This document shows, piece after piece, positions 3 through 53,639 of a stretch of DNA of 64,000 nucleotides (position 1 is the first letter of the stretch; each line of letters begins with the position of its first letter). Under the pieces are notes generated by a model. That model made no database searches. It saw only the letters and a program-made list of their open reading frames with translations, and was not told the origin of the DNA. This stretch comes from an uncultured Acidimicrobiales bacterium (GTDB lineage: Bacteria; Actinomycetota; Acidimicrobiia; Acidimicrobiales; DATKAS01): positions 128,031-192,030 of the forward strand of contig CAVPSD010000006.1 of NCBI GenBank assembly GCA_963708175.1. The letters run 5' to 3'. The position numbers and the translations under genes are program-made.

Positions 3-811
3 ATCGCCCTCCCCGCGCTGCGATTGCAGGGCCTCTACTTCGCGCTCGCCTCCGTCGCGTTCGCACGCGCGATGGAGCTCGATTTTCTTCGCCCAGCCCG
101 ACGTGCTCGGCAGTCGCTTCGAGGTCGTGCAACGGCCCGAGGTGTTCGGCATCTCGTTCAAGTCGCCGCTCGCGTTCCTCGTCCTCTGCGCGATCGTCTT
201 CTCGATGATGATGGTCGGGCTCGTCGCGCTCAGACGCAGCCGTCACGGACGTCGCCTCGTCGCGATGCGCGACAGCTCGGCGGCGTGCACGACGATCGGC
301 CTCGACATCCGCAAGCTGAAGCTCGAGGTCTTCTGCCTGTCGGCCGCGCTCGGTGCCGTCGCCGGCGGCCTGCTCGCGATGCAGCGCGGCACGCCATCTG
401 CTGCGGACTTCGGGATGTTCCCCGGGATCTCGATGGTGCTTTTCCTTGTCATGGGGGGTGTCACGCTCCTGGCCGGCGCGCTCTTCGCGGGATGGGCGAA
501 CTTCCTCTTCGCGTGGTTCGGCGCCGTGTGGACCGGCGGGATCTTCACTGCCGTCAGCCGCGTCGGCCCGGGGGGCCTTGCCGGTGGCGTGAGCCAGAAC
601 CCGAACGGGATCGCGGGCGAGATGAGCAAGGGCTTTTCGCAGGCGCTTCCGTGGCGACCGGACGCGCGTGCAGTCCGCGGCGGCGCAAGCGCGCCTCAAG
701 CGCGGCGTCGACCCGGCGCGCCTCGGCATCGACGAGCCGTTCACCGAAGGTGAGCTTCGGCGCATCAACGACCGGCTCGGTGTGCCCGCCGACCTCCGGA
801 CCACCGGCTGA
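3..811 (+). pseudogene. livM: Branched-chain amino acid ABC transporter permease (LivM-like), 5' end outside the window, reading frame broken twice
   Basis: Frame 3 from nt 3 reads IALPALRLQGLYFALASVAFARAME. The protein continues in frame 1 (IFFAQPDVLG..., hydrophobic TM segments, NPNGIAGEM). The last ~50 codons (VQSAAAQARLKRGVDPARLGIDEPFTEGELRRINDRLGVPADLRTTG) are in frame 2 and end at a TGA overlapping the next ATG (cTGATGg, 809-813). The shifts lie near 80-95 and 626-668. Confidence 0.6.
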
Positions 812-2289
812 TGGCCGTGCTCGAGGTCGCCGGCGTCACAGTCCGGTTCGGCGGGCTCATGGCGCTCAACGACGTCACGATGCCGGCCGAAGTGGGGCAG
901 ATCACGGGGCTCATCGGCCCGAACGGCGCCGGGAAGACGACGCTCTTCAACGTGATCACGGGCTTGCAGGTGCCGCAGTCGGGGCGCGTCGTGCTCGACG
1001 GTCGAGACCTCACCCAGACGTCGGCCTACAAGCGGGCGCGTCTCGGTCTCGCCCGTACATTCCAGCGGCTCGAAGTTTTCGACTCGCTGACGGTGCGGGA
1101 CAACATCCTGGTGGCCGCGGAGTCGACCGGTGACGCTGCGGAGGTCGATCGCGTGATCGACGTCGTCGGCCTGCGCCACGTCGTCGATGCACCCGTCGAC
1201 ACACTGCCCACGGGGATGGCTCGCCTCGTCGAGCTCTGCCGCGCAGTCGCGACGAAGCCGAAGGTGCTGCTCTGTGACGAGTGCTCGTCGGGCCTCACCG
1301 ACCAGGAGACCGGCGTCGTCGGCGACGTCATCCGCCGCGTCGCCGCCGAGGGCGTGGCGGTCCTTCTCGTCGAGCACGACATGTCCTTCGTCATGGGCAC
1401 GTGCGACATCATCCACGTGCTCAACCTCGGCGTGAAGATCGCAGCGGGGACGCCGGCCGAGATCCAGGGCAACACCGAGGTGCGAGTCGCCTACCTCGGC
1501 GAGGCCAAGGACGAAGCCGCTCCGCGCACGCTCGCGGTCGAGCACCTGCGTGCCCTGGAGGCCCAGCCGCGTGCGCCGATCGTCGAGCTGCGCGACGTGC
1601 ACGCGGGCTACGGGACGATCGACGTGCTGCACGGCGTCTCCCTCGCCATCGCCCCGGGCGAAGTGTTCGCGCTGCTCGGCCCCAACGGCGCGGGCAAGTC
1701 GACGACGCTCAAGGTGCTCAACGGTGAGGTGCAACCCTCGAGTGGCGACGTGCTTCTCTGCGGGGAGTCGGTGAGGGGAGTGCCCGTCGACGCCCTGGCG
1801 CGCGCCGGGCTGTGCACCATCCCCGAAGGGCGTGGCATCTTCCCGAACCTGACGATCGACGACAACCTGCGGATGTCGACGTTCACGGGCGTGTCGCTCG
1901 CAGACATTCGGGAGCGCGCTTTCACGCAGTTCCCGAGGCTCGCCGAACGGCGCAAGCAGCTCGCCGGCACGTTGTCGGGGGGTGAGCAACAGATGCTCGC
2001 GCTCGCGCGGGCGCTCGTCGTCGACCCCGCAGTCCTCGTGATCGACGAGCTGTCCATGGGCCTCGCGCCGATCATCGTCGAGCGGCTCTACGAGATCGTC
2101 GCCGAAGTCGCCGAGAGCGAGGCGATCGCGATCCTCATCATCGAGCAGTTCGCGCACGACGTGCTCGGCGTCGCGACGAAGGCGGGCGTGATGCTGCACG
2201 GCCGGCTCGTGACCGTCGGCAGCCCTGACCAGATCGCGCTGACGATCTCCGACGCCTATCTGGCGTCGACCGCGGAAGAGCTCGCGTGA
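811..2289 (+). CDS. Fused ABC transporter ATP-binding protein (LivG-like N half plus LivF-like C half)
   Basis: 492-aa ORF with two Walker A motifs (GPNGAGKTT, GPNGAGKST), an LSGGEQQ signature in the C half, and a ~26-aa linker between the halves. Its start overlaps the livM stop. Confidence 0.85.
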   Translation: MAVLEVAGVTVRFGGLMALNDVTMPAEVGQITGLIGPNGAGKTTLFNVITGLQVPQSGRVVLDGRDLTQTSAYKRARLGLARTFQRLEVFDSLTVRDNILVAAESTGDAAEVDRVIDVVGLRHVVDAPVDTLPTGMARLVELCRAVATKPKVLLCDECSSGLTDQETGVVGDVIRRVAAEGVAVLLVEHDMSFVMGTCDIIHVLNLGVKIAAGTPAEIQGNTEVRVAYLGEAKDEAAPRTLAVEHLRALEAQPRAPIVELRDVHAGYGTIDVLHGVSLAIAPGEVFALLGPNGAGKSTTLKVLNGEVQPSSGDVLLCGESVRGVPVDALARAGLCTIPEGRGIFPNLTIDDNLRMSTFTGVSLADIRERAFTQFPRLAERRKQLAGTLSGGEQQMLALARALVVDPAVLVIDELSMGLAPIIVERLYEIVAEVAESEAIAILIIEQFAHDVLGVATKAGVMLHGRLVTVGSPDQIALTISDAYLASTAEELA

Positions 2290-3480
2290 CCGAACCCCAT
2301 CCCGTGATCGTCGTCGGGGCTGGGCCGGTGGGCATGACGGCCGCGCTCGCACTCCGCGCACTGGGCCACCCCGTCACCGTGCTCGAGGCCGAACCGGAGG
2401 ACCGAACCCGCCCGGGCAGCCGGGCGATCTTCCTCCACCGTGAGTCGCTCGAGCATCTCGAGTCGGTGAGCGAGGGCCTCGGCTGGGAGATCGCTCGTCA
2501 CGGCATCGTCTGGACGACGAAGAAGACGTACTACCGGGAAGACCTCGTCTACGAGCGCACCTATCCCCCGCCCGACCCGACCCGGCTGCCCCACTCGACG
2601 AACCTGTCGCAAGTCGTGATCGAGCAGCTGCTTCTCGACGCATGCAAGAGCGCCGGCGTCGAGATGGTGTGGGAGCAGGAGCTCGTGGCGTCCACGACAT
2701 CAGCCGAGGGCGTGGTGCTGCGGACGGCCACAGGGGACGAGTGGCGAGCCTCGTATGTCATCGGCGCCGACGGCGCTCGGTCGGTCCTCCGGTCGTCCGC
2801 CGGCATCGAGCTCGAAGGACCTCGCATCGAGGACTCGTTCGTGATCGTCGACGTGGCCGAGGACGAATCGTCACCAATGCTGCCGGAGCGCGTCTTCTAC
2901 TACGAGCACCCGGCTGTCCACGGCCGGAACGTGTTGCTGGTGCCGTTCGCGGGCGGCATCCGCGCCGACCTGCAGCTGCGGCCCGACGACGATCCGGAGC
3001 AGTTCAACGATCCAGAGGGCGTGAACCGCTGGATCGCGCGGGTGCTTCCCCCGAAGTACGCGGACCGTGTCACCTGGGTGTCGACGTACCGCTTCTACCA
3101 AGTCGTCGCGTCCGCCTTCACGGATTCATACCGCCGCGTCGCGCTGGTCGGCGAGGCAGCGCACCTCTTCGCACCCTTCGGCGCTCGAGGGCTCAACTCG
3201 GGCATCCCCGACGCGCTCGTCGCCGCACGCGCGATCACCGAGGGGACACCCGCCGCGGTCGATCACTTCGCGTCCGACCCGCCGCGAAGCCGCTCTCTAC
3301 AACCGAGACGCGTCGAGCCTCGCGCTCCGGCACATGCAAGCCAACGGTTGGTCGATCCGTGCGAAGCGTCGGCTGAAGGCCGCGATCGCGAAGCGCGGGA
3401 TCGCCGCGGGCACGTGGCTCGACTCGTCACCCTTCGGCCCTCGCGCCGCAGAGCACAAGACCGAGACCGGCTCGTACTGA
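2286..3480 (+). pseudogene. FAD-dependent monooxygenase (PHBH/UbiH-like), frame broken once near the 3' end
   Basis: N terminus VIVVGAGPVGMTAALAL (GxGxxG), then ADGARSVLR and GEAAHLFAPFGARGLNSGI motifs. After ...DHFASD (about 3275-3285) the plausible C terminus (AALYNRDASSLALRHMQANGWSIRAKRRLKAAIAKRG...) continues in the frame of ORF 3067..3480. The rest of ORF 2286..4508 is an Arg/Pro-rich shadow of paaX. Confidence 0.7.
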
Positions 3481-3500
3481 CCTCACCCAGCGGTCGGGAC

Positions 3501-9650: not shown

Positions 9651-10105
9651 GTCGGCGACTGCTTCTCGATGGCCTCCACGATGCGGTCGGTGGAGGCCCG
9701 CTGCTCGTACAGCTCACGCACCAGCCAGTAGCGCAAGTACCGCGAGAGCGAGTGACGAGCCCAGACGATGGCCCCCACGACCGCGATGCCGACCCCGAGG
9801 ATCGTGAGCGCGAGCGAGTCGCCCTGCTCGAGCGCGTCACCTGCATTCCGGACCCCCGTGAGACCGACGACGGCCACGACGAAACCACCGATCAGGGCGA
9901 GGATCCCGAGGATCAGGAGTATTCGCTCCGGCTCGGAGCGGCTGCCCTTCACCTTGAGCTTGCGGATCTCCTCCTCGAACTGCTCGAGGCGGGGACCGGC
10001 GAGCACGCCCGGCGACGCGGGCGACGCGGGCGACGCGGCGATGGCGCTGGACGTCTCGACGACGTCGGTCACGGCGTCTTCCTCCCCCGCGGTCGCGATG
10101 CGCAA
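9647..10105 (-). CDS. Hypothetical membrane protein (two predicted TM helices)
   Basis: 152 aa. Hydrophobic stretches ILLILGILALIGGFVVAVVGL and LALTILGVGIAVVGAIVWA. The stop overlaps the thiolase start (ATGA). Contains an in-frame 9-nt x3 repeat (10021-10047, SPASPASPG). Confidence 0.55.
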   Translation of the reverse strand: MRIATAGEEDAVTDVVETSSAIAASPASPASPGVLAGPRLEQFEEEIRKLKVKGSRSEPERILLILGILALIGGFVVAVVGLTGVRNAGDALEQGDSLALTILGVGIAVVGAIVWARHSLSRYLRYWLVRELYEQRASTDRIVEAIEKQSPT

Positions 10106-10203
10106 ACGGTAGCGATCCGACCTGGTCCGTCAAACTAGCGATCAGGCGTGCCGAGCGTCAACAGATGTGTAGGGTATTGGCGCTGTCGACCAAGGGGGAT
10201 CCG

Positions 10204-11220
10204 ATGGAGTTCTCGCTACTGAACGCGGTGCGCAACCACCCGCAGTCGGCCTACGCCGAGAAGGACGTGTACTCCGACTACATCAGCGACGCCGTGCTCG
10301 CGGAGGAGATGGGGTTCGTCCGCTCGTGGTACGGCGAGCACCACTTCCGCGAGTGCCAGTGGTCGGGATCGCCGATCCAGATCTGCACTGCGGTCGCAGC
10401 TCGAACCGAGCGGCTGCGAGTCGGCACCGCGGTCGCGCTGCTTCCGTTCCACGACCCGATCCGCATGGCCGAGGACGTCGCGACGTGCGACATCCTCTCG
10501 GGCGGCCGGTTCGAGTTCGGCATCGGCCCGGGCTCGCAGTACGAGGAGTTCCGTTCGTTCGGCATCGATCCGAAGACGATGAACGGCCGCACGTGGGAGT
10601 CGATCGACTGGATCCTGCGGGCCTTCCAGGAGAAGGACGAGTTCAGCCACAAGGGTCGCTACTACGACATCCCGAACATGACGTTCACGACCAAGCCGGT
10701 GCAGAACCCGGTGCCGGTGTGGTCGAGCGCAATGGGCCCGCAGAATCTGGCCAAGGCCGCCGAGCGCGGGTTCAACTTCATCGCTCCGATCTTGTTCGGG
10801 TGCGACGCCGCGCTCGAAGCCGCCGGACGCAACCCGCGCGACCACAAGATGGCGTCGATGCAGGTGATCCACGTGGCCGACTCGACCGACCGGGCCTGGG
10901 AAGACGCCGGCGCCGGCATCGAGTACTTCGTCAACTTCTACAACCTGCGCAAGAACCTCGATGGGTCCTCGCAGGGGAACGAGCCGATCACTCAAGAGAT
11001 GCTCCGGGCCGGCAACGCCGGGTTCTGGCACGCATCGGTCGGCACGCCCGACGACGTGATCGCCTCCCTCACACCGATCGTGCAGGGCGCGCTCGGACGC
11101 ATCACCGAGGTCGCGTGCGGGTTCCGGCACGCGGGGATGCGTACGGACGTCGTCCACCACTCGATGCGGCTGTTCCACGAGCACGTCATGCCCGCGCTGC
11201 AAGAGCTCGCAGCGCCCTGA
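10204..11220 (+). CDS. LLM-class flavin-dependent oxidoreductase
   Basis: MEFSLLNAV..., MGFVRSWYGEHHF, LRVGTAVALLPFHDPIRMAEDVATCDILSGGRFEFGIG. The ATG at 10204 is preceded by GGGGGA. The GTG at 10165 in the ORF track is less likely. Confidence 0.85.
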   Translation: MEFSLLNAVRNHPQSAYAEKDVYSDYISDAVLAEEMGFVRSWYGEHHFRECQWSGSPIQICTAVAARTERLRVGTAVALLPFHDPIRMAEDVATCDILSGGRFEFGIGPGSQYEEFRSFGIDPKTMNGRTWESIDWILRAFQEKDEFSHKGRYYDIPNMTFTTKPVQNPVPVWSSAMGPQNLAKAAERGFNFIAPILFGCDAALEAAGRNPRDHKMASMQVIHVADSTDRAWEDAGAGIEYFVNFYNLRKNLDGSSQGNEPITQEMLRAGNAGFWHASVGTPDDVIASLTPIVQGALGRITEVACGFRHAGMRTDVVHHSMRLFHEHVMPALQELAAP

Positions 11221-11223
11221 TCG

Positions 11224-11514
11224 TCAGAGGTCGATGGACCGAACCTTCGATACGAGATCGCCCGTCACCACATTGGGATTCGTCGCGAACGCCTCGGCGC
11301 GTTCGGGCGATGCCAGGTAGGCGGCTTCCGCCGCATCGAAGTCGCCGTCGTGCGCCACCGCCCACACGAACTGGTCGTGCTCGTCGTCGGCGTAAGCGAA
11401 CACGATGCGGAACCCGTGCTCCGCGCGGGGCCCGACGATCGAGCGCCACCACCCGATGAAGTCGTCCATCCGGCCCGACTCGATCGTGTAGCGCCGCAGC
11501 TGGATCGTCGTCAT
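11224..11514 (-). CDS. Small NIPSNAP/ABM-like alpha+beta barrel protein
   Basis: 96 aa, MTTIQLRRYTIESGRMDDFIGWWRSIVGPRAEHGF..., which resembles NIPSNAP-type proteins. The family assignment is tentative. Confidence 0.5.
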   Translation of the reverse strand: MTTIQLRRYTIESGRMDDFIGWWRSIVGPRAEHGFRIVFAYADDEHDQFVWAVAHDGDFDAAEAAYLASPERAEAFATNPNVVTGDLVSKVRSIDL

Positions 11515-11515
11515 C

Positions 11516-12301
11516 TCACGCGATCCCTGTGTAGGTGCCGCCCTCGAGGTGCAGGTTGGTGCCCGACATGTAGCCGGCGTGGTCGCTGCACACGAACGCG
11601 CACGTCTTGCCGAACTCCGTGGGCGTGCCGAACCTCTTCGCCGCGACAGACGACACCTGCCGCGCCCATGCCTCCTCGAACGAGACGCCTCGCTTCTCGG
11701 CTTCGTGCTGGACGACGTCGCGTTGGCGCTGCGACACGATGCCCCGGGGCTGCAGAAAGTTGATGGTGACCCCGTGCGCCGCAGCGTCGAACGACGCTGC
11801 TTTCATCAGCGCCGTCTGTGCCGCCCGCGCGCTCGCGCTCGCGACCTGCACCTCCTCGGGCGCGGTGACCATCGCCGACGTGATGCACACGATCCGACCC
11901 CAGCCCCGTTCCTTCATGCCTGGCAGCACGGCCATGAGCAGTGCGAGCGGGGTGCGGAAGTGCAGCGTCAGGGCCTCCTCGAAGTTCTCGGCGGTCTGGT
12001 CGGCGAGGATTCCCGGCTTCGGCCCGCGGTTGTTGAGAACGAGGATGTCGGGCTCGGGGCAGGCCGCGAGAAGCGCCGCTCGCCCCGCGTCGGTGGTGAT
12101 GTCGGCGGCGACCGCGACGACCTCGCGGTCGATGCCCGGCAGGTTGCGGAGCTCGGTGGCCGTCTTCTCGAGCTTCTCCTCGTCGCGGCCGTTGATTACG
12201 AGGTGGACGCCTTCTTCAGCGAGGGCTTCGGCGCACGCGCGACCGAGCCCCTGACTCGATGCACACACGATTCCCCGACGCCCAGCGATGCCGAGGTCCA
12301 T
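11516..12301 (-). CDS. SDR-family oxidoreductase
   Basis: MDLGIAGRRGIVCASSQGLGRACAEALAEEG (TGxxxGxG-like) and a later ...ITSAMV... segment. I prefer the ATG at 12301 to the GTG at 12319 given in the track. Confidence 0.8.
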   Translation of the reverse strand: MDLGIAGRRGIVCASSQGLGRACAEALAEEGVHLVINGRDEEKLEKTATELRNLPGIDREVVAVAADITTDAGRAALLAACPEPDILVLNNRGPKPGILADQTAENFEEALTLHFRTPLALLMAVLPGMKERGWGRIVCITSAMVTAPEEVQVASASARAAQTALMKAASFDAAAHGVTINFLQPRGIVSQRQRDVVQHEAEKRGVSFEEAWARQVSSVAAKRFGTPTEFGKTCAFVCSDHAGYMSGTNLHLEGGTYTGIA

Positions 12302-12389
12302 CAGTCGCACGGTAGACACTCCCAGTGTCGGCCGTCAACCAAAGGTGTTACCGTCGCCCCGGGGTCGACTACGAAACGGGGGATGACTG

Positions 12390-13617
12390 ATGGCACACGA
12401 TCACGACGGATGGCGCTCCCTCGGGTTCCGTGGCCTGCCACCGATGTCGGGCAAGGTGAACCACCCCGTCGCGGGTGAGTTCGCGCCCCTCATCGACCCG
12501 CGCGTCGAGGGGCAGCACGCGCCGTTCGTCGGCATCACGACCGACGGCGTGGTGCAGACCGGCCTTCGCTCGCTCGACGATGCGCCGAAGGTGTCGACTG
12601 CACCGATCGTCGACGCCGCGCTCGCGTTCGTCCAAGCACTTTCGCCGCAGCAGCGGACCCAGGCCTGCCTGTCGATGGACTCGCCCGAGTGGCGCACATG
12701 GACCAACGTGCACGTGGCGTTCTGGCGACACGGAGTGTTGCTCGACGAGCTGTCGTCAGCGCAGCGCGACCTCGCTCTCGGGATCGTGCGAGCAACGTTG
12801 TCGGCGCGCGGCTACGACTACGCCCTGGGGATCATGGAGCTCAACGAGCTGGTCGCGCAGCTCAAGGAAGACCACGACTCGTACGGCCAATGGCTGTACT
12901 TCGTGTCGATCTTCGGCAACCCGGGCGGCGACGAGCCGTGGGGCTGGCAGATCGACGGCCATCACCTCGTCATCAGCACGGTCGTGTTCGACGGTCGCAT
13001 CGTGACCACGCCGGCCTTCATGGGCTCCGAGCCGCGCTCGATCGGGGACCGGTCGTGGTTCGACCTCGAGGAGGAGGCCGGCCTGGTCTTGATGCGGTCG
13101 CTCGACGACGCGCAGCGCGCCAAAGCGCAGATCTACTCGTCGATCACGAAGGTCGACATGCCGGATCCGGACCTGCAGAACCCGTTCGACGGGAGGCAGG
13201 TGGGCGGCATGGGTCAGGACAACCGCGTCGTCCCCTACCAGGGTGTCCGGGCCAGTGACCTGTCGGACGCGCAGCGCCGGCTACTGCTCGAGGTCGCCCG
13301 CTGCTACGCCGCGTGGATCAGTCGACGCGCACGCCGCAGTGTCGATGGCCGAGATCGAGTCGCATCTCGACGACACGTGGTTCTCGTGGTACGGCGGCTA
13401 CGGCGAGAGCGATGCCTTCTACTACCGGGTGCACAGCCCGGTGAGGCTGATCGAGTTCGACCACCACGACGGCGTCGTGTTCGACAACATCGATCCGTCT
13501 CGCCACCACATCCACATGCTGGTACGCACGCCGAACGGGGGCGACTACGGGCGAGACCTGCTGAGGGAGCACCACGAGCGCTTCGCCCACGTCGGCGGGC
13601 GCCACGTGCCTCGCTGA
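12390..13617 (+). pseudogene. DUF3500 domain protein, frame broken once
   Basis: The N part comes from ORF 12390..14069 up to ...VARCYAAWI (about 13314-13326). The C part (VDAHAAVSMAEIESHLDDTWFSWYGGYGESDAFYYRVHSPVRLIEFDHHDG...GGDYGRDLLREHHERFAH) is in the frame of ORF 13243..13617. Confidence 0.65.
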
Positions 13618-13652
13618 AGATCACCCCGGGCCCGAACCGCACGGCCTGTCGC

Positions 13653-14432
13653 TCACGCGATCGGCGCCCCGACTTCCCACGTCACCGCGGTGTCGAACGG
13701 CCGCTCGGTGGGCGCCGGCACGAGGAACGCAAGGTGGCGCTCGACGCCGGGGCCGGGGTTCGAGTTGCGGTGCGGCACGCCAGCGGGGAGCACGACGAGG
13801 TGGCCGGGCTCTACATCATGGACCTGGTCGGCGACCTCGACGTGCAGGGTGCCCTCGAGCACCCAGTACAGCTGATCGAACGCGTGGATGTGCCAAGACG
13901 TCCCGGGGGACTCGGGCAAGACGCGTGCCGCGTTCACGATGATCCTCGAGCAGCCGCGCTCGGCCGAAGCCAGCCGAGCAAGCTCGAACCCGCGCACGTG
14001 GCTCGACTCGTAGGGCACTTCGTCGAGCGCGCGCACCCAGCCGGTGCCCGGCCCACGTTCGTCGTCTGACGCGGGAGTACTGCCCGGCTTGAACCGATTC
14101 GGCGCCGGCACGAGTAGGTCGAGGTGCAGCTCGGGAACCGCGCCGTCGTTGCGGTTCTTGTGGACCACACCGGCCGGGATGCACACAAGCGAATTCGGCC
14201 CCGCGACGTGCTCCACGCCGTCGAGAACGACGGTGAGCTCCCCTTCGATGATCCAGTAGAGCTGGTCGCTCTCGTGCACGTGCGGAAGCGGGCGCACCCA
14301 CGCCGGCGGCACGCCGACGGCGACCACCCAGGCGGTCTCGTTGTCGACGAGGTTGACCGCGTCGAAGTCGTCGACGCTCAGCGCAGAACGGTCGAGGGGG
14401 CGGACGTACTCCACTACGATGACGTTAGACAC
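13653..14432 (-). CDS. Bicupin (two cupin domains) protein
   Basis: 259 aa with two cupin-like units (PHVHESDQLYWIIEGELTV...IPAGVVHKNRN and WHIHAFDQLYWVLEGTLHV...LPAGVPHRNSN). Confidence 0.75.
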   Translation of the reverse strand: MSNVIVVEYVRPLDRSALSVDDFDAVNLVDNETAWVVAVGVPPAWVRPLPHVHESDQLYWIIEGELTVVLDGVEHVAGPNSLVCIPAGVVHKNRNDGAVPELHLDLLVPAPNRFKPGSTPASDDERGPGTGWVRALDEVPYESSHVRGFELARLASAERGCSRIIVNAARVLPESPGTSWHIHAFDQLYWVLEGTLHVEVADQVHDVEPGHLVVLPAGVPHRNSNPGPGVERHLAFLVPAPTERPFDTAVTWEVGAPIA

Positions 14433-14447
14433 TCTCTGTGTCGCACG

Positions 14448-27464: not shown

Positions 27465-27936
27465 TCAGGCGTGCACCTGCTGCGCGAGGTAGTGCGCTTC
27501 ACCGATCTGGCGGATGAGCTCGAGCTGGGTCTCGAGCCAATCGGCGTGCTCCTCTTCACCCTTCAAGATGTGCTCGAGCAGCTCGCGGCTGCCGGCCTCT
27601 TCCTTCGACAGGCACAAGCCGATGCCGTTGTTGAGCCGCTCGATCGCCTCGCGCTCGAGATCGAGCGCGAGCGAGAGCTGCTCGGGCACGGTCTCGCCGA
27701 CGCGCACGACGCCGAGGCGCTGCAGGTTGGGGAGGCCCTCCAGGTAGAGGATCCGCTCGATCGAGCGCGTCCGCATCCTTCATCTCGTCGATCGACTCTT
27801 CGCGGAAGTGCGACGCGAGGCGCTCGTACCCCCAGTTCGCGCACATCTTGGCGTCGACGAAGTACTGGTTGATCGCGGTGAGCTCCGCGGTGAGAACGTC
27901 GTTCAGCAGCTCGATGATCTCGTCATCGCCGGTCAT
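27465..27936 (-). pseudogene. bfr: Bacterioferritin, frame broken once
   Basis: [58 protein letters not shown] (ORF 27556..27936) joins [47 protein letters not shown]...[19 protein letters not shown] (ORF 27465..27776). The break is near 27757-27765. Confidence 0.8.
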
Positions 27937-29167: not shown

Positions 29168-29737
29168 TCAGACCTTCCTCCCGAGGAACGCCATCAGCTG
29201 AGTCTGCTCGTCCGCGCCTTCGGGGGGCTCCACCTTGGCCGCGTACAACAATGGCTGGCGGAGCATCGCGTCGAACGGCTTCACGCCGTCGAGCAACGCG
29301 TGCACGAGCTCGGGATCGAGCTGCACGTCGTATCCGATCGCTTGGCTCAGATCCCAGGTGTGCACGGACACGTCGAGGATGCAGGCAGGGAGGAACTGGT
29401 CGAGCGGTACCCGGCCGGTCGGGCCGTCCACGACCTTGGCGAGGTTCTCTGGCGTGAGGTCGCGTGCGGTCGTCTCGAGAGCAGTCGCGAACACGGCCTT
29501 GGGGTCATCGCCCGCGAGCACGCGACTCGAAGGCCACTCGCTGTACTGCATCGCGAGCTTGCCGGTGGTCGCGAGCGTCGAGACCATGCGGAGGCTTCCC
29601 ACCGAGTGGCCAACGACATCGACCGCCTTCCACTCCTCACACGGTGACTGCGCCTCCCACTGGTCGCCCTCGACCATCTCGACAACGGCCTGGAGATCAC
29701 GCAGCGCGCGGAGGTAGCGGTCGCTGGTCTCGCTCAT
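29168..29737 (-). CDS. TIGR03086-like mycothiol-dependent / DinB-type metal-binding protein, paralog A
   Basis: 189 aa, DQWEAQSPCEEWKAVDVVGH...HTWDLSQAIG...KVEPPEGADEQTQLMAFLGRKV. Confidence 0.7.
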   Translation of the reverse strand: MSETSDRYLRALRDLQAVVEMVEGDQWEAQSPCEEWKAVDVVGHSVGSLRMVSTLATTGKLAMQYSEWPSSRVLAGDDPKAVFATALETTARDLTPENLAKVVDGPTGRVPLDQFLPACILDVSVHTWDLSQAIGYDVQLDPELVHALLDGVKPFDAMLRQPLLYAAKVEPPEGADEQTQLMAFLGRKV

Positions 29738-30611: not shown

Positions 30612-30863
30612 ATGGGGGCCATCGACCACCTCATGTGGGTCGTGCCCGATCTCGACGCCGGGATCCTCTGGGGGACGTCGCCGCACCCATCCGCCGACCT
30701 GCCGACCGATTGCGCGCTCGAGCGGCTCGAGGTGTTCGACCCCGATCCTGGAGAGCTGACGCGGCTCATCCGCACACTCGACGTCGACGGAGTCGAGGTG
30801 CAACAGGGCGCAGCTGGCGCGCGTGCGACACTGCGCACGCGGTCGGGCACCGTGGAGCTCTGA
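30612..30863 (+). CDS. Unusually short VOC/glyoxalase-like protein (possible internally deleted remnant)
   Basis: 83 aa. The N terminus MGAIDHLMWVVPDLDAGI and the C terminus LEVFDPDPGELTRLIRTLDVDGVEVQQG...ATLRTRSGTVEL look like the two ends of a glyoxalase-like-domain protein with the middle missing. Confidence 0.4.
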   Translation: MGAIDHLMWVVPDLDAGILWGTSPHPSADLPTDCALERLEVFDPDPGELTRLIRTLDVDGVEVQQGAAGARATLRTRSGTVEL

Positions 30864-38567: not shown

Positions 38568-39254
38568 GTGCAGCCGATCGCGATCATCCCGTCCGTGCTC
38601 CCGATCGACCAGGGACGACTCACCGAAGGAGTGATCGAGCTCGAGAAGGCCGGCTGCGACCGCGTGCAGTTCGACGTGATGGATGGCCAGTTCGTACCGG
38701 TGATCACCTTCGGGGCCGATGTGATCGGCGCGATCCGCTCCGAGGTGAGCGTGCCGTTCGAGGCGCACCTCATGATCGAAGCTCCCGAGCAGATGCTCGC
38801 GCCGATGTTCGCCGCCGGCTGCGAGACGCTCATCGTGCACGCCGAGACGACGCGGCATCTCCACCGCACCCTCGGCGCCGTGCGGGATCTCGGCGCACGC
38901 GCGGCCGTGGCGATCAATCCGGCGACCCCCGCATCAGCTGTCCAGAACGTCCTCGACGTCGTCGACCATGTGCTCGTCATGACGGTCAACCCGGGCTGGG
39001 GCGGCCAGAAGTACATCTCGACGATGGAGGCCAAGATCGCCGAGGTCGCGCGGATGATCGAGGCCAGCGGCTTCGAGGTCGGCATCGAGGTCGACGGCGG
39101 CATCGGTCGAGACACGGTCGCCGGTGCGGTCACTGCAGGTGCGAACCTGCTCGTCGCCGGCAGCGCGCTCTTCCGCGATCCCGAAGGCCTCGGCCACGCG
39201 GTGTCAGACCTGCGGGCCCGCGGCGTCGCCGCGGAACAGGCCCGGTCAGCCTGA
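38568..39254 (+). CDS. rpe: Ribulose-phosphate 3-epimerase
   Basis: IIPSVLPIDQGRL, DVMDGQFVP, HLMI, VMTVNPGWGGQKYI, EVDGGI. The start is the GTG at 38568 (preferred) or 38541. Confidence 0.9.
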   Translation: MQPIAIIPSVLPIDQGRLTEGVIELEKAGCDRVQFDVMDGQFVPVITFGADVIGAIRSEVSVPFEAHLMIEAPEQMLAPMFAAGCETLIVHAETTRHLHRTLGAVRDLGARAAVAINPATPASAVQNVLDVVDHVLVMTVNPGWGGQKYISTMEAKIAEVARMIEASGFEVGIEVDGGIGRDTVAGAVTAGANLLVAGSALFRDPEGLGHAVSDLRARGVAAEQARSA

Positions 39255-42200
39255 GACCAGCGCCTCGACCTCCGCACACGCAGCCTCGAGATCGGTGAGG
39301 TCTCGTTCGAGACACCGCGCCGGACCCGCGAAGAGGAACGCACATCGCTCGACCGAGCGTCCGAGCGAACGCCGCACTGCCAACGTGTACGCAGCCGCCT
39401 GCAGCCGGTAGCGGCCGATCGCCTCGTCAGCGTCGGCCTCGCTGCGCACGCCATCGGTCTTGTAGTCGACGACGATCAGCCCACCCGCTTCGGTCTCGTA
39501 CAGCAGGTCGATGAAGCCCTCGAGCACACGGTCACCGATCGGCACGGCGACGAAGACCTCACGCCAGTAGCGATCACTCGCGACTGCCGCTCGCACGCTG
39601 GGGGACTCGAGCACACCGCGGGCGCGACGGGCGATGTCGCCGGCCAGGTCGTGCACACCTTCGGCCGCTGCCTGCGCAGCCGCGAGGTCGTCGACACCCG
39701 CACCTGTCGCCAGATCGACGGTTTGGAGCACCGCGTGCACGGCGCGACCGATGGCGGTGCCTGCCCGGCCGCGCCGCCACGGCGGTTCGTCTTCGGCTCG
39801 CTCATCCGCTTCGTCCGGCGTGGCGTCGACGATGTCGTCGGCGACCCCGTCGTCCGTCGGCGCCCTCGTCGGCGCCCTCGTCGGCCGTCTCGACGAGTTG
39901 ACGAGCCAGATGCTCGAGGCGCGTCGCCGCCACCGCGGGTGAACGTCCGAGCCGCTCGATTGCGGCAGCACGCGCGACGACCCAGGCTTCGCGCTCGTTC
40001 GGCGCGTCGGGTGACGGGACGAGCTCGATGGGCAAATCGGTGCCCTTCGCCAGGAGAGGCGTCGCTTCGAGCTTCGGCACCACGGGACAACGAGGCGCGA
40101 TCTCCCTCGCCAGCGTGTCGAGGCTCGGAGACGGTCGGAAGAGGCTCAGCACGAGGCGGTCGCGCGCTCTGGTCATCGCGACATACGCGAGCCGCACTCG
40201 TTCCGCTCTGAACGCGGCGCTCTCGTCGGTCCAGAGGTCCTTGTACTTGGCCGTCTCGAAGAGATCTCCCTTCTGGGCGCCCGCCTTCACCTCGGGGCCG
40301 TCCGGGCCCCAGAGCACCGGCGGCCCGAGGGCCCGATAGCGCGAGTTGAGACCCATCAGCACCACGATCGGGAACTCGAGACCCTTCGACGCGTGCACCG
40401 TGAGGATGCGGACGGCGTCGTCGTCTGGGTCGGGGGCGATCGCGTCGTTGACCCATACGTCTCGCTCGGCCTGCTCCCGTGCCCACGCCACGAACTCTTC
40501 GATCGATGTGCCGCCCGCGGCCTCGAACGCCCGCGCCTGCGCGAGGAAGAACTCGACGCGGCGCCAGCGGTCACGAGGGCGGGCGTGGGCGAAAGCGAGC
40601 TCGCGCAGGTGGCAGACGTCGATGACCCGCCGCACCATCTCACCGATCGACAGCCAGTGACGGTCGCGATGAAGGCCATTGAGCACCGCCATCGCCGCGG
40701 CAACCGGATGGCTCGGGTCGATGGAAACGTGCTCAGCTGACAGGTAGCTCCAGCGACCGTCGTGCCATCTCCACGTGGCGAGATCGACGTCCGAGCACGC
40801 GAGACCGGGTGAGCGGAGGGCCGCGACGACCGCCACGTGGTCGTTCGGATCGCTGATCGCACTGAGCACCGCCAGCAGGTCTCGGACCTCTGCGGTGTTC
40901 CAGATGAGCATGCGACTCTCGACGCGAGCAGGGATGCCGGCGGCGTCGAGACCGTGATCGAGCGCGGGCAGCGTCGCCCGAGTCGGCATCAGTACCGCGA
41001 TGTCGGAGTAACGCGCCGGACGAAACTCGTCCTTCCCGACCCGGACCCTCCACCCTTCGCGCTTGGCTTGCGCGACGACGCGCACCACCTCTTCGGCCTC
41101 GCGGGCGCGCACCTCGGCGGTCGGGAGGTCAGCGAGCTCCACGCCGATCGTGACCACCGCGGGACTCGAGTCGTGGTCCGCCACGTGCGCGGTCAGCGGC
41201 ACATACTCCGGTTGGGCGGCGGTGTCTGGCTCGTTCATCCACTCGGAGAACAACCCGTTGACGAAATCGACGATCGAGGCGACGGTCCGGAAGTTCTCAG
41301 TGAGGTGGAGCGCGGGGTGGGCGAACACCTTCTGAGCGCGGCGATAGAGCTCGACGTCGGCCCGGCGGAACCGGTAGATCGACTGCTTCGGGTCGCCGAC
41401 GAAGAAGAGCCGACCCGCGTCTGCAGGCGTGAGCGGGTCGTCCCACCATGCGCGCGAAGCGATGTCCGGCCGAGACGACGCCAGCAGCACTGCGATCTCG
41501 ATCTGCAGCGGGTCAGTGTCCTGAAACTCATCGATCAGGATCCGCTCGTACGCGACGCGGGACGCCGCGCGCACGTCGTCGTGACGCAGCGCGTCGCGCG
41601 CGAGCACGAGCAGGTCGTGAAACAGCAGCTGCCCCTCGCTCATGCGCTCGTCTGCCCACTCGAGCACCGAAGCCGCAAACGCAGGGACGAGGGCAGTGAT
41701 GGCGTCACGGCGAAGGTCGAACAGCAGGCCCTTGAGGGCCTTCTTCGCGGCAGATGCGCCCTTCTTCGGCAGGACCCCCTCGGTTCGCAGAACGTCGATG
41801 CGCGTCTCGTCGCTGTCGGCCTTCTGCGCTCGGGCGATGTACTCGTCGAGCACCGGCTCGCCGTCGGTCTTCAACACCGAGAGCGGCTGCACGAACGACG
41901 AGATGTCGACCGGTGGCAGCTCGACCCTCTGCGCCGGCCATGCCCACGAGACGTCGGACTCGCGGAGGCGGTCGTAGCTCTGGTGGAGCGCGTAGAGGAT
42001 CTCTCGGATGCGGCCGGGCGTGAGGCCGAGCTCGACCGCGTGGACGACAACGGGGGCGAGCTCGCCCTTCGGATCGAACAGCCGCGCCGCGAGCTCGCGC
42101 CATCTCTGTTCGAGGTGTATCGCCTCGCCCACCTCGTCGAGCACCTCGAAGCGAGGGGGCACGCCGACCGCCAGTCCGTGCTGGGTGAGCAGCCTGCGAG

Positions 42201-42509
42201 CAAATGCATGCAACGTCGACATCGGCGCCTCGCCCAAGACCGCGAGCGCCGCATCACCTGCGGGGGTGCGACGACCTTCGAGCTCTTCGCGCACGCGTAC
42301 CCGCAGCTCGGCCGCCGCCTTCTCCGTGAAGGTGATGGCCGCGATCCTGCGGACGTCGATGCCCGATTCGACGAGCGCACACACCCGATTGACGAGGACG
42401 GTCGTCTTCCCGGACCCCGCGCCCGCCTCGACAAAGAGCGTGTGCACAAGGTCGTCCGCGACTGTGGCGCGGACGACCTTGTCCTCGGCGCGCGCTCGAC
42501 GTCAGTCAT
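39246..42509 (-). pseudogene. AddA/RecB-like UvrD-family helicase with C-terminal PD-(D/E)XK nuclease, frame broken twice
   Basis: The ATG at 42509 overlaps the addB-like stop (ATGACTGA), but the frame breaks about 20 nt later (42486-42497) before ...DDLVHTLFVEAGAGSGKTT. The helicase body is ORF 39802..42447. The second break is near 39849-39861, inside an ADEGADEGAD repeat. The nuclease domain (GFIDLLYE...VVDYKTD...YRLQAAAY) is in ORF 39246..39971. Confidence 0.75.
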
Positions 42510-45583: not shown

Positions 45584-45785
45584 CCTCAGCCGACATCGAC
45601 GCGAGCAGCGAGCCGATCAGAAAGCCCACGAGGCCGAGCTGCAGGGTTCCCCTGCGCCCGAAACGGTCGCCGATCGCGCCAGCGGTGAAGAAGAGCCCGG
45701 CGAAGACCAGTGAGTAGGAGGCGATCGACCACTGCAGCTGCGACGTCGTCGCGTGCAGCTCGCGGGAGAGGGTCGGGATAAGGCT
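45584..45785 (-). pseudogene. Remnant of an MFS (DHA2-like) transporter, about 67 codons of the TM1-TM3 region only
   Basis: LIPTLSRELHATTSQLQWSIASYSLVFAGLFFTAGAIGDRFGRRGTLQLGLVGFLIGSLLASMS matches the conserved N-terminal MFS motif (GxLxDRxGRR). There is no upstream TM1/start and no downstream body, because the addB-like start follows. Confidence 0.6.
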
Positions 45786-45895
45786 CGTCCTACTCTTGCG
45801 CCTCGTGCCGTATGACACAACCTGACAAATTTCACAGAGCGTCAGAAGGTGAGGTGCCGCGGCCAGGGATTCGGGCTGTGCCACCCTCTCGACAC

Positions 45896-46975: not shown

Positions 46976-47057
46976 GCGGGCGTGGCGGAACTGGCAGACG
47001 CGCCGGGTTTAGGTCCCGGTGGAGTGATCCGTGAGGGTTCGAGTCCCTCCGCCCGCA
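46976..47057 (+). tRNA. tRNA-Leu, anticodon TAG (class II, long variable arm)
   Basis: Acceptor gcgggcg/cgcccgc, anticodon stem ccggg/cccgg with loop ttTAGgt, variable arm tggagtgatccgt, T arm gaggg-ttcgagt-ccctc, discriminator A. CCA is not fully encoded. Confidence 0.85.
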
Positions 47058-47067
47058 CCCGCCTTGC

Positions 47068-47946
47068 TCAAGTTCGCGGCAGTGCCGAAGGCTCGATGAT
47101 CTTCGAAGCGGCGATGGGGCCGCCGATCTGGAGCGGCACGGCCGGCAGCGGCGGGATCGGCTCACCCGCGGGGCGCGGCCACGCGATGGGCGTCGCGTCG
47201 CTGTCGATGACCTCGCCGACCGCGATCGACGCCTCGGTCCACGCTGAAGTGAGGGAACGGGTACCCGCGGGTGCTGCCGTCGGGGAAGTAGATGATCGTG
47301 TGGACGGCGCGGTCGCGGTCGGTCGTGTTCGGCTTCGCGAGGTGCACGGTCAGCCCGTGGTGGAACGCACACCGATCCGGCGCGGCACCTCGACGAACAC
47401 CGGCTCGATGCCGCGCGATCTCGGGGTCGGCAAGGATGTCCTCCGGTTCGCCGAAGAAGATGTTGACGAACTTGCGCATGCCGATGAGGTGGCTGCCGGG
47501 CACGTAGCCCATCGCACCCGATGCGAGCGTCGAACCGACGAGCGGGATCCACGCTGTGACCGAGGCAGTCTCGGCGATCGGCCAGTAGGGGTGGTCCTGG
47601 TGCGCGTCGGTCTCGCGGCCGCCCGCCTCCTTGTAGAGCGCCTGGTCGTGCCAAAGGCGGATCGCGTCGACCTCGAGCAGCTCGGCGGCCGCCTGACCGA
47701 TGCGCTGATGGAAGGTCAGCCGCCGCGACTTCGGCGTCGTCCTCCCAGAGGTTCATGCACTGGATGAACGACTGCTGGTAGCGGCTCCGCTCCGCCAACG
47801 GCGCGATGTCGATGCCCTCCCGCCGGCGATGCACGGCACCCGTCACGGCGGCCTCGAAGAACTCGAGCTCTTGAGCCGACGAGCAGGTCGGGGACCACCA
47901 CGTAGCCGTCGCGCTGGAAGGTCTCGACGATGTCAGGTGTGAGCAT
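47068..47946 (-). pseudogene. Phytanoyl-CoA dioxygenase (PhyH) family protein, heavily frameshifted (at least 3, probably 5 breaks)
   Basis: The pieces MLTPDIVETFQRDGYVVVPDLL / SAQELEFFEAAVTGAVHRRREGIDIAPLAERSRYQQSFIQCMNLWEDDAEV / RRLTFHQRIGQAAAELLEVDAIRLWHDQALYKEAGGRETDAHQDHPYWPI...GYVPGSHL... / IEPVFVEVP / CAFHHGLTVHLAKPN...HFSVDR / ASIAVGEVIDSDATPIAWP... lie in alternating frames. Breaks are near 47878-47882, 47720-47730, 47405-47418, 47378-47388 and 47230-47238. Confidence 0.7.
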
Positions 47947-49090
47947 GGGTCGTCGCCTCGTCGATGTCAGCACCGCTCATCATGTCGATGATCAGTCGGT
48001 AGAAGTGCGTGAGCAGCAGCTCGTTCTGCGGGAGCAGCGTTCCCGGTGGAGCGATGTCGGCGGCGTGCGAGCGTTGCACCCGGGCGCAGATGTCGACGTC
48101 CTGGCGGATCGTCGGATCGGCATCGAGACGTCGCTTGCCCTTGGCTCGCGTCGCGTCATCGAGGTCGGCCGGGAGGAAGCAGAGGTGCCGGAATCGAATG
48201 CGGTCGACGTCGAGCACCTGGACCGTGCCGACGTCGAAGCCGCGGCCAGAGTGCTGTAGGTAGGTCGTCGGGAAGACCCAGTTGTAGAAGTAGTACCACT
48301 GCCCCTCGGGCGGCGGTGCGTAGGTGATGCCCGCCTCGACGCCGTCGCGGAACGGGATGCGATGGTGGATCCAGTAACGCCCACCCACGGCGAGGTCGTG
48401 CTTACGAGGGTCCATCACGACCGCACGGCTGAACTCAGGGTGCGCCGTCGGACAGTGGTAGCACTCGATCGTGTTGTCCTGGAACACCTTCCAGTTCGAT
48501 GCGATCTCCCACGCGTTCTCGAACCCGAGCACGAAGTCGGCGGGAACGCACCCGCGCTCCGCCATCAGCTCGGGAAGACCTGAGGTCCACTCGGCGAACG
48601 AAGGCGCCGTCACGTCGACGTTGACCCAGACCATCGGTCCCCACACCGCGACCTGCACCGGCAGCAGGCAGATCCCCGTGGTGTCGAACGAAGGCTCCAT
48701 CTCGGCGCGTGGAGCCCTTCGAAGCGAGCCGTCGAGGTCGTAGCTCCACCCGTGGTACCCGCACCGGAGCATCGAGTGGTTGGCCGCCTCGACGACGACG
48801 GGGTAACCACGATGCCGGCAAATGTTGACGAAGCCGCGGATCTGGTCAGCTCGATCGCGCACGAGCAGTATCGGCACACCGGCGATCTCCCACACGAACT
48901 GGTCTCCCGGCGCGGCGAGCTTCGTGGTGTCGGTGACGAAGTGCCACGAGCGTCGCAAGATGCGCTCGGTCTCGCCGCGAAAGATGTCCGGGTCGGTGTA
49001 CCAAGACGACGGCAAAGACGATCCGGCGTCAACGGCCGCTCGCAGCGCGCCGGCGCCCGCCTCGTCGAGCAGCCCACTCGCGCTCGTCAT
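47933..49090 (-). CDS. Rieske (2Fe-2S) aromatic ring-hydroxylating oxygenase, alpha subunit-like
   Basis: 385 aa with CRHRGYPV...CGYHGWSY, then NWKVFQDNTIECYHCPTAHPEF. Confidence 0.85.
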   Translation of the reverse strand: MTSASGLLDEAGAGALRAAVDAGSSLPSSWYTDPDIFRGETERILRRSWHFVTDTTKLAAPGDQFVWEIAGVPILLVRDRADQIRGFVNICRHRGYPVVVEAANHSMLRCGYHGWSYDLDGSLRRAPRAEMEPSFDTTGICLLPVQVAVWGPMVWVNVDVTAPSFAEWTSGLPELMAERGCVPADFVLGFENAWEIASNWKVFQDNTIECYHCPTAHPEFSRAVVMDPRKHDLAVGGRYWIHHRIPFRDGVEAGITYAPPPEGQWYYFYNWVFPTTYLQHSGRGFDVGTVQVLDVDRIRFRHLCFLPADLDDATRAKGKRRLDADPTIRQDVDICARVQRSHAADIAPPGTLLPQNELLLTHFYRLIIDMMSGADIDEATTHAHT

Positions 49091-50034
49091 CGTTCGCCAC
49101 CGCCAGCCAACACCTCGTCGATTCGCGCGAGCGTTGCGTCGTCGAGCTTCACGCCAGACGCGGCAGCCGTCTCGTCCAACTGGTTGGGATGCGACGCGCC
49201 GACGATCGCCGATGTGACGTCGGACCTGCGAAGGATCCAGGCGAGTGCGAGCTGCGCGAGCGACAGACCGAGGTCATCAGCGATGGGTCGGAGCTCCTGC
49301 ACAGTCGTCAGCATGGCGTCGGTCGTGAACGCCCCGATGAACCCGCCCATCTCTTCGCTCGCGGCGCGAGATCCCGGCGGTGGTGGCTCGCCAGGCGCGT
49401 ACTTGCCCGTGAGCACACCTTGCGCAAGCGGGGAGAAGACGATCTGACCGATGCCGTTGTCCGCGGACAGCCCGAACAGCTCCTTTTCGGGGCGGCGCCA
49501 CAACATCGAGTACATCGGCTGGCTCGACACGAAGCGCTCGACACCGGTGAGCTCGAGCGCGGCTCTGATCTGCTTCGGCGACCACTCGCTGAACCCGATG
49601 TAGCGAGCCTTGCCGGCATGGACCGCGGCGGTGAGAGCCTCCATCGTCTCCTCGAGCGGCGTCTCCGGGTCGTACCGGTGGCACTGGTACAGATCGACGT
49701 GATCGGTGCGCAGCCGCTGCAACGAGGCATCGAGCTGCTTGCGGATCTGCGGAGCGCTGAGGCCCTTGTCGGTCGCGGACATCGGGAAGAACACCTTCGT
49801 CGCGAGCACGTAGGAATCGCGGTCGACGCTCTGGAGGGTGCTGCCGAGGAAGGTCTCCGCGGCTCCTCGTCCGTATGCGTTGGCGGTGTCGATGAAGGTG
49901 ATCCCGAGATCGAGGGCGCGGTGCACGCACGCCTCGGAGGTCGCCGCATCGACACCGACGGCGAACGTGAGCCACGATCCCAAAGCGATCTCCGAGACGC
50001 GGAGGTCGCTGTTCCCCAGGGTGCGGAGCTGCAT
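49087..50034 (-). CDS. Aldo/keto reductase
   Basis: 315 aa with LGITFIDTANAYGRGAAE, DLYQCHRYD, ARYIGFSEW and LAWILR. Confidence 0.85.
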   Translation of the reverse strand: MQLRTLGNSDLRVSEIALGSWLTFAVGVDAATSEACVHRALDLGITFIDTANAYGRGAAETFLGSTLQSVDRDSYVLATKVFFPMSATDKGLSAPQIRKQLDASLQRLRTDHVDLYQCHRYDPETPLEETMEALTAAVHAGKARYIGFSEWSPKQIRAALELTGVERFVSSQPMYSMLWRRPEKELFGLSADNGIGQIVFSPLAQGVLTGKYAPGEPPPPGSRAASEEMGGFIGAFTTDAMLTTVQELRPIADDLGLSLAQLALAWILRRSDVTSAIVGASHPNQLDETAAASGVKLDDATLARIDEVLAGGGER

Positions 50035-50042: not shown

Positions 50043-50052
50043 AAGTTACCGT
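50043..50052. promoter_or_regulatory. Overlapping back-to-back -10 boxes (AAGTTACCGT) in a 26-bp divergent intergenic region
   Basis: Plus-strand TACCGT (50047-50052) ends 8 nt before the ATG at 50061. Minus-strand TAACTT (50048-50043) ends 8 nt before the ATG at 50034. The two hexamers share the central TA. No SD is present on either side. Confidence 0.4.
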
Positions 50053-50060
50053 CGCGGTCG

Positions 50061-52469
<2,409 letters not shown>

Positions 52470-52487
52470 CACCTCGACCGAGCCCGG

Positions 52488-52531
52488 GATTGGTAGCTCG
52501 GGGATCAAATGAGTGCCCCGAACTACCAATC
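52488..52531. terminator. 16-bp-stem hairpin (one mismatch) downstream of the HerA-like gene
   Basis: gattggtagctcgggg / loop atcaaatgagtg / ccccgaactaccaatc. It starts 19 nt after the stop and has no U tract. Confidence 0.5.
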
Positions 52532-52627
52532 TCGACCGGAACACCCCTCGGTACGCTGAGGGCCGCCCAATGCTCCCGACGAGTCGCTGATCGCGTCGCC
52601 GGTCGCCGCGGATTAGCGTCGGCGGTC

Positions 52628-53639
52628 GTGCGCCTCTCCGATCTTCCGACTCCAGCGCTCATCGTCGACGCCGCCGACCTTCAGCACAACCTCACGACGA
52701 TGGCCGCGGCACTTCCCGGCAGTCGTTGCCGTCCCCACGTCAAGGCGCACAAGTGCACCTCGCTCGCGGGCGAGCAGCTCGCCGTCGGTCATCGGTCGTT
52801 CACCTGCGCGACGCCACTCGAGGTCGTCGGGATGGCGAAGGCGGGCCTCGGCGAGGACCTCCTCCTCGCGAACGAGTGCGTTGACGCCGAGCGACTCCGA
52901 GACATGGCCTCGCTGGGCGATGCTCGGGTCACGGTGGCGGTCGACAGCGAGGCGACGATCGACGCCGCGGCGAACGCGGGCATCCGTGAGGTGCTGATCG
53001 ACGTGAACGTCGGCCTCCCCCGATGCGGTTGTTCGCCCGAGGACGCTGGCCGGCTCGCCGACCTCGCACGGGCCAAAGGCATCGGGGTCCGCGGCGTCAT
53101 GGGCTACGAGGGTCATGTGATGCCCGTCGTCGATCGGGCGGATCGCGCCGCCCAGGTCCAGGAGTGCATGGCCAAGCTCGAGGCCGCGGCACGATCTCGT
53201 GGGCGGCGACGTGACGTCGGCTGGCGGCACCGGCACCTACGACCTCCACCGGTGGGCGAATGAGATCCAGGCCGGGTCGTACGCGCTGATGGACACTTAC
53301 TACGGACGGCTCGGCCTGCCGTTCCGCCAAGCCTTGTCCGTGTGGACAACGGTCATCTCGGCGTCCCCGAAGTGGATGGTGTGCGACGCGGGCCTGAAGT
53401 CACTCGGGATGGATCACGGGGACCCCTCGATCGACGGGGCGAAGGTGTGGTTCTGCTCGGACGAGCACGTGACGTTCGCACCGGAGGACGGCAGCCCGCT
53501 CCGCCACCTCCGCGTCGGCGATCACGTGAAGGTGCTTCCCGCTCATGTGGACCCGACAATGGCGCTCCACGAGCGTGTGCACATCGTCAGTGGCGAGGAC
53601 GTGCTCGACACGTGGGCGATCGATCTGCGCGGTTGGTAG
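52628..53639 (+). pseudogene. DSD1-family PLP enzyme (D-serine dehydratase / D-threonine aldolase-like), frame broken once
   Basis: The N part (V)RLSDLPTPALIVDAADLQHNL...RPHVKAHKC...VMGYEGH...KLEAAA is in the frame of ORF 50444..53263. The C part HDLVGGDVTSAGGTGTYDL...AGSYALMD...LPAHVDPT is in ORF 53199..53639. The break is near 53186-53191. Confidence 0.7.

Follow-up and report, generated by a model that had tools for sequence, protein, structure and literature searches.

The DNA analyzed here, hereafter the window, is the 64,000-nucleotide stretch at positions 128,031 to 192,030 of contig CAVPSD010000006.1 (assembly GCA_963708175.1), which derives from an uncultured Acidimicrobiales bacterium of the lineage DATKAS01. 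Eleven of its genes, among them those encoding bacterioferritin, an AdnA/AddA-like helicase-nuclease and a PhyH-family dioxygenase, are interrupted by a total of 22 breaks of the reading frame. The breaks are single-nucleotide events that are private to this assembly, their removal restores conserved proteins, and they have a signature in common with the errors of sister assemblies from the same lineage. We consider it very probable that assembly error accounts for essentially all of these sites and that they constitute a data-quality artefact rather than a record of decaying genes. An original prediction, made from the letters of the sequence, had listed at least 19 breaks, or 21 with a tentative pair in the PhyH gene. 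That the breaks exist is borne out, but the count had to be revised because PhyH carries six of them, not three to five, and because one break in the AdnB-like gene, at 45498, had been missed. The per-gene counts for DUF3500, both LAL regulators, bfr, the MBL-fold hydrolase, AdnA, DSD1, the FAD monooxygenase and livM were right, and the stretches described as intact do contain complete Pfam domains and no frameshift relative to orthologs.

The window is 68% G+C and contains no N, and both its gene content and its nearest relatives point to uncultured Acidimicrobiia/Acidimicrobiales of soil. Two of its products, an AMP-ligase and a glycerol-3-phosphate dehydrogenase, are identical to proteins recorded on one 832,004-bp contig of NCBI and ENA. 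For a first check of frame switches we used Pfam models and a hidden Markov model (HMM) of reading frame based on G+C content at third codon positions (GC3). The HMM flagged same-strand frame switches where the original prediction had listed breaks, and Pfam models are divided between frames in DUF3500, bacterioferritin, the MBL-fold hydrolase, AdnA, DSD1, LAL1, LAL2 and PhyH. Breaks were placed using a frameshift-aware protein-to-DNA aligner of our own, for which the references were single-frame ortholog proteins encoded on a scaffold assembled from short reads of a farmland metagenome (ERZ1823576 Scaff1810918; L002/L004). Multiple DNA alignments that included two to four relatives bore out every placement. 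The scaffold is syntenic with the window from 11.2 to 54.3 kb, over approximately 43 kb, at about 80% DNA identity. Five other relatives, which are 78-90% identical, come from contig_N records of European Nucleotide Archive analyses ERZ25039490, -542, -555, -591 and -602 plus CAVUAV010000005.1 (L001). In this way 22 breaks were placed: two in livM, one each in the FAD monooxygenase, DUF3500, LAL2, bfr and DSD1 genes, three in LAL1, three in the MBL-fold hydrolase, two in the AdnA-like gene, six in PhyH and one hidden at the start of the AdnB-like gene. They are given below with the strand of the gene and the change in nucleotides.

78-84 (break at about 80), + strand: livM, a fused LivH/LivM-type permease gene whose 5' end lies outside the window; +1, GAGCT[C]GAT, frame +2 to frame +0.
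665-716, + strand: C-terminal tail of livM; net -2/+1, frame +0 to frame +1, by one insertion or two 1-nucleotide deletions.
3272, + strand: FAD-dependent monooxygenase; +1 (G), 3' of the GDAAH motif; private relative to L007 and L008.
13317-13320, + strand: DUF3500 gene; +1, Pfam match split 3-230 / 226-297; private relative to four relatives.
14460-17058, - strand: LAL (AAA_16-TPR-GerE) regulator 1; 15388 (-1), 14849 (+1), 14814 (+1).
17058-19644, - strand: LAL regulator 2; one break at 17979-17985, net -2/+1.
27762-27763, - strand: bacterioferritin (bfr); +1, GATC[G]AGC on the + strand; private relative to L004 and L005.
28859-29100, - strand: MBL-fold hydrolase; three +1 events at 28859, 29079 and 29099/29100, the last within the TTG start codon.
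39249-42509, - strand: AdnA/AddA-like helicase-nuclease; 42485 (-1, codon 9) and about 39856 (+1, codon about 887).
45498, - strand: AdnB-like nuclease; +1 at codon 10, masked by an in-frame alternative GTG start at 45519.
47063-47946, - strand: PhyH-family dioxygenase; six +1 events at 47230, 47369, 47383, 47416, 47723 and 47881.
53188-53189, + strand: DSD1-type D-serine dehydratase; +1 (G); private relative to three relatives.

Eighteen of the 22 breaks are +1 insertions; the other four are deletion-like (15388, 42485 and the net -2 events in LAL2 and the livM tail). All are private to the window in DNA alignments with its relatives, and the shift sites are thus not conserved in orthologs. 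When the insertions are deleted, full-length, stop-free proteins that are 85-95% identical to their orthologs are obtained. This holds, with collinearity to the ortholog throughout, for Bfr, DSD1, DUF3500, PhyH at all six sites and the MBL-fold hydrolase at all three, and the remaining breaks are all bridged by the frameshift-aware alignment. None of the corrected proteins is matched exactly in the collection searched, and no second assembly of the species came to light there, the nearest relatives being 78-90% identical.

Individual genes illustrate the pattern. The ferritin model is split 1-51 / 51-142 in the window, and the corrected Bfr of 156 residues matches its ortholog at 147 of them. 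Lactamase_B is similarly split 10-88 / 83-196, and three single-nucleotide deletions yield a stop-free hydrolase of 299 residues that is collinear with the L004 ortholog. In DSD1, Ala_racemase_N and D-ser_dehydrat lie in different frames of what becomes a 336-residue protein once corrected, and the corrected DUF3500 protein has 408 residues and no stop. AAA_16 and GerE are in different frames in both LAL genes, whose L004 orthologs (866 residues for LAL1 and 863 for LAL2) are each encoded in a single frame, as is the 1090-residue L002 ortholog of AdnA, a protein whose UvrD and PDDEXK domains occupy different frames in the window. The PhyH insertions are all private relative to L001 and L003. 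Across them, 270 of 292 residues agree with the L003 protein, and correction gives an open reading frame (ORF) of 290 residues without a stop. The break in AdnB, placed by frameshift-aware alignment as well, is private relative to L001, L002 and L003, and in the FAD monooxygenase gene the GC3 HMM drops the frame at 3285. For livM, four distant short-read relatives keep one frame at about position 80, where the window switches, the inserted C is private to the window in the L007 alignment, and mismatch phase and the GC3 HMM agree; in the tail of the gene, L007 reads LPWRPD...RLGIDEPF...TTG* in a single frame that is 2 nucleotides longer, and the phase of third-position mismatches changes. A livGF scan of JGI metagenomes returned relatives of at most 61% identity, which are usable for the livM frame and not for base-level calls.

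Several further candidate breaks were rejected. A livM frameshift common to the window and L007, which would have been an ancestral lesion, resolved into the window-private C plus separate L007 insertions inside a mismatch run. A window deletion at 3028 was discarded, the window frame being unbroken through the GDAAH motif. At this column both error-prone relatives, L007 and L008, carry an extra base (A in one and G in the other), a coincidence that could be due to chance or could be a hint at recurring insertion sites. Apparent frameshifts at the C-terminus of hyp253 and at 42521 are in-frame indels of 18 and 3 nucleotides, respectively.

In the short-read scaffold every ortholog is in one frame, with zero to one private indel of a length not divisible by three per region. 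The closest relatives present a different picture. L001 is Microflora Danica (MFD) metagenome-assembled genome (MAG) MFD02199.bin.2.7, a GTDB species representative and a confirmed Nanopore MAG, and the contig names of L003, L005, L006 and L007 point to a long-read origin as well. Measured against the same short-read references, these five contigs have between 0.24 and 4.3 internal frameshifts per kb. All of these are private, fall at sites other than those of the window and in different genes, and are strongly over-dispersed. AdnA plus AdnB of L001 contain 66 internal frameshifts while adjoining genes are clean, L003 has 12 in a single MFS gene, L006 has 8-9 in a LAL gene and another 5 in DUF3500, and L007 has about 25 extra bases over 4.5 kb in which the window is clean. 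Counting terminal events, L001 has 35 frameshifts in AdnB and 33 in AdnA, or 68 in the 6.4 kb from 9968 to 16356. Once frameshifts are bridged, about 75% of the residues of L001 AdnA/AdnB match their short-read orthologs, and other genes match at higher levels. The genes concerned are plainly under selection, and the frameshifts of the sister contigs cannot be biological. Private 1-nucleotide insertions in the five contigs number about 133 against about 16 private deletions (approximately 10% of private events), and over the window and L001-L007 together the ratio of private insertions to deletions is roughly eight to one. The window shares three traits with these contigs at lower density, namely the excess of insertions, the avoidance of neighboring bases by the inserted base and the presence of hot segments.

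The second of these traits concerns the sequence context of the insertions. In the window the inserted base differs from both of its neighbors in 16 of 18 cases and equals one of them in the remaining two, and in the sister contigs it differs from both in 108 of 142 (24% equal), compared to 55% (45% equal) in a simulated null (P = 2e-7). The original prediction had argued that some breaks sit in homopolymers and that these sites speak for error. In general this does not hold, since none of the 18 insertions extends a run of at least three, only 15388 abuts such a run (G3; about one of the 22 sites), and at the C5 run (28850-28854) the alignment shows a substitution and puts the extra base at 28859. 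Other contextual links also failed. Nine of 21 window breaks lie within 8 nucleotides of GATC, which suggested Dam-type methylation as a cause (P = 0.008, post hoc; GATC occurs 9.9 times per kb), but an independent set of 133 sister-contig insertions showed no enrichment (17/133 versus 18%) and this cause was rejected. An enrichment of CGCG/GCGC near insertions is circular, as the inserted C or G itself makes the motif. Finally, insertions appeared to fall beside third codon positions, as predicted if single-nucleotide polymorphisms between strains were called twice (raw chi-square P = 0.007), and this link was not significant against a null of simulated insertions passed through the same aligner (P = 0.11).

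How the breaks are spread along the window had been read in the original prediction as a sign that uniform sequencing error would not suffice, given that long intact genes stand next to repeatedly broken ones. Formally the breaks do cluster: four adjacent gaps are shorter than 50 nucleotides (0.36 expected, P = 2e-4), the variance-to-mean ratio over 1-kb bins is 2.3 (P = 1e-5) and one 1-kb bin holds six breaks (P = 3e-5). This signal is chiefly PhyH, with six insertions in 650 nucleotides, plus the pairs 14814/14849 and 29079/29099, and collapsing PhyH to one event brings the clustering to P = 0.07. For the 37 genes that have short-read references, the way in which breaks are distributed among genes is compatible with a uniform rate (seven genes hit, 7.6 expected; P = 0.67). 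At approximately 0.34 breaks per kb a 3-kb gene stays unbroken with a probability of about 0.36, and at some 0.3 events per kb about ten broken genes beside intact long neighbors are therefore unsurprising. The true anomaly is the hot segment in PhyH and not the spread over genes, and clustering does not favor a biological origin, being far stronger in the sister assemblies.

The surroundings of the PhyH gene are variable. It sits in a block of PhyH, aldo-keto reductase and Rieske oxygenase genes (47.06-50.03 kb; 47063-50034) that differs among relatives and has tRNA-Leu(TAG) (46976-47059, + strand) at its edge. The short-read relative L002 lacks the block entirely, and L001 and L003 lack the Rieske gene (47933-49090). 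Deletion junctions, described below, are close to the AdnB and DSD1 breaks, and the triple break in the MBL-fold hydrolase lies beside a window-specific MDMPI duplicate. These positions fit poor consensus where strains differ, although with about 12 independent clusters the association is not statistically secure. The duplicate, a second MDMPI_N paralog at 29171-29737 on the - strand, is directly upstream of the hydrolase, is found in neither L004 nor L005 and is 62% identical to the ortholog of the neighboring copy.

We suggest that the breaks arose as consensus errors when a metagenome was assembled from long reads, most likely Nanopore reads alone, and that they would be mainly spurious single-base insertions that survived polishing. 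Under this model a low background of about 0.25 events per kb would be overlaid by hot segments (PhyH, the 5' end of the MBL gene and the 3' end of LAL1) with poor local consensus, which could stem from shallow coverage there or from the collapse of strain variation, for instance in the variable block beside tRNA-Leu that contains PhyH. The sequencing technology of the window we infer from its relatives and from the size of its contig, as it is not documented. For MFD MAGs, Nanopore reads alone were assembled with Flye at a read-coverage cut-off of 8 and polished once with Medaka (PMC12313526), and the same group showed that R10.4 consensus does not reach near-finished quality below about 40x coverage and that gene calls are fragmented by indels (PMC9262707). 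Of the two causes entertained in the original prediction, the evidence supports local low-coverage or problem regions; at by far the most sites it speaks against pseudogenisation.

Comparison with three or four relatives also reveals three deletion scars in the window that appear to be genuine.

45585-45842, - strand: N-terminal remnant of an MFS transporter gene, corresponding to residues 16-99 of a 544-residue ortholog and to MFS_1 positions 14-81 of 347.
52569-52613 (within 52470-52627), + strand: remnant of an MFS_3 gene, comprising the last 15 codons (87% identical).
30621-30860, + strand: glyoxalase-family gene that has lost about 120 internal residues in frame, so that an ORF of about 80 residues is left.

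The first remnant abuts the region upstream of AdnB, is represented by a full gene in L001, L002 and L003, and probably reflects a real deletion of about 1.3 kb. The MFS_3 gene stands between HerA and DSD1 in three relatives, and in the glyoxalase gene residues 4-18 are joined to residues 139-204 of a 204-residue ortholog. The three large deletions affect other genes than the frameshifted ones, and they are probably ordinary lineage-specific gene loss unrelated to the frameshifts.

Several considerations weigh against attributing the breaks to assembly error. Our case is built on assembled sequence, so that no site is directly shown to be wrong at the level of reads, and the technology behind the assembly reaches us by way of its relatives and not as a known fact. 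The errors depart from the textbook homopolymer pattern, the GATC link failed in the independent set and the codon-position link did not reach significance. There is a single short-read relative, at about 80% DNA identity, and the real scars of gene loss in the same lineage indicate that some decay is happening.

One alternative is a mixture in which most breaks are errors and one or a few isolated ones are true mutations, for instance those in livM, at the AdnA N-terminus or in the fast-evolving LAL regulators. The insertion signature is not shared by the deletions at 15388 and 42485 or by the net -2 events in LAL2 and the livM tail, the LAL genes are the least constrained of the set and real gene loss has occurred nearby, all of which would suit such a mixture. 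However, 1-nucleotide deletions also make up approximately 10% of private events in the sister contigs and so belong to the same error process, and nothing positive marks out any one site. We therefore regard a mixture of this kind as unlikely.

We give little credence to two more specific proposals. According to the first, a defined subset is real, either because PhyH beside tRNA-Leu is genuinely decaying or because the four non-insertion events are true mutations; this would fit a soil Acidimicrobiia lineage that is shedding genes, as the three scars in the window suggest. According to the second, the neighbor-avoiding, insertion-only and non-homopolymer error mode may arise when a consensus writes both alleles of polymorphic sites in collapsed strains. 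If true, such double-allele consensus would be a systematic flaw across public long-read MAG catalogues.

Genuine recent pseudogenisation, in which the lineage would be losing about 11 genes through real frameshift mutations, we consider highly improbable. It can draw on the fact that orthologs are intact in relatives, from which it follows that the breaks are derived, on the three real-looking scars in two MFS transporter genes and a glyoxalase gene, and on the clustering of the breaks. Selection, however, is not relaxed in the broken genes. In comparisons between the window and its relatives, the ratio of mismatches at first and second codon positions to those at third positions is 0.29 in broken genes, 0.25 in intact genes and 0.20 in PhyH, such that substitutions are gathered at third positions to a like degree in broken and intact genes, with the LAL genes the least constrained. 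Moreover, in-frame stops number zero in 12,157 aligned codons. Bacterial pseudogenes typically accumulate deletions in excess of insertions, along with nonsense and nonsynonymous changes. The lesion spectrum of the window, with 18 insertions against four deletion-like events and no nonsense codon, is opposite to this pattern and contradicts the deletional bias. The six PhyH insertions in particular would need a long period of neutral evolution of which the substitutions (270 of 292 residues matching) show none, and an identical signature reaches 4.3 events per kb in sister long-read contigs. Lastly, programmed or tolerated frameshifting by ribosomal slippage or functional split genes is scarcely credible: the only point in its favor is that the fragments stay open in their own frames, whereas every clean relative encodes the orthologs in one frame, the shift sites lack conservation, one insertion destroys the start codon of the MBL gene, PhyH would need six slips, and recoding is not known from any of the broken families.

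If assembly error is the correct explanation, bfr, AdnAB, DSD1, the LAL regulators and the other broken genes are to be regarded as intact, and the breaks do not represent a biological feature. The value of the finding is as a warning on long-read MAG quality: in this lineage, the hot segments of contigs from long-read MAGs reach 4 frameshifts per kb, and pseudogene counts, gene-length statistics and pangenome presence/absence calls based on such MAGs will be inflated unless the annotation allows for frameshifts or the contigs are polished with short reads. Fragments of such frameshifted genes are already present in public protein catalogues (P0008, P0009, P0272 and P0303).

Two known systems invite comparison. 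Genome decay of the Mycobacterium leprae type, found in host-restricted bacteria, resembles the window in that many conserved genes are interrupted beside intact neighbors. Unlike such genomes, the window displays no relaxed selection and no nonsense codons, and it has an insertion bias and multiple hits in a highly conserved gene. The second system is the residual indels of Nanopore-only MAGs, which break up gene calls and depress IDEEL scores (Sereika et al. 2022, PMC9262707; PMC12313526). In contrast to classical Nanopore indels, the sites in the window lie off homopolymers, insertions dominate and the inserted base mostly differs from its neighbors. The points of likeness are that single-base indels split conserved genes yet do not occur where a relative was assembled from short reads, that indel density differs from contig to contig as well as along contigs, and that the closest public relatives of the window are themselves contigs named in the contig_N style.

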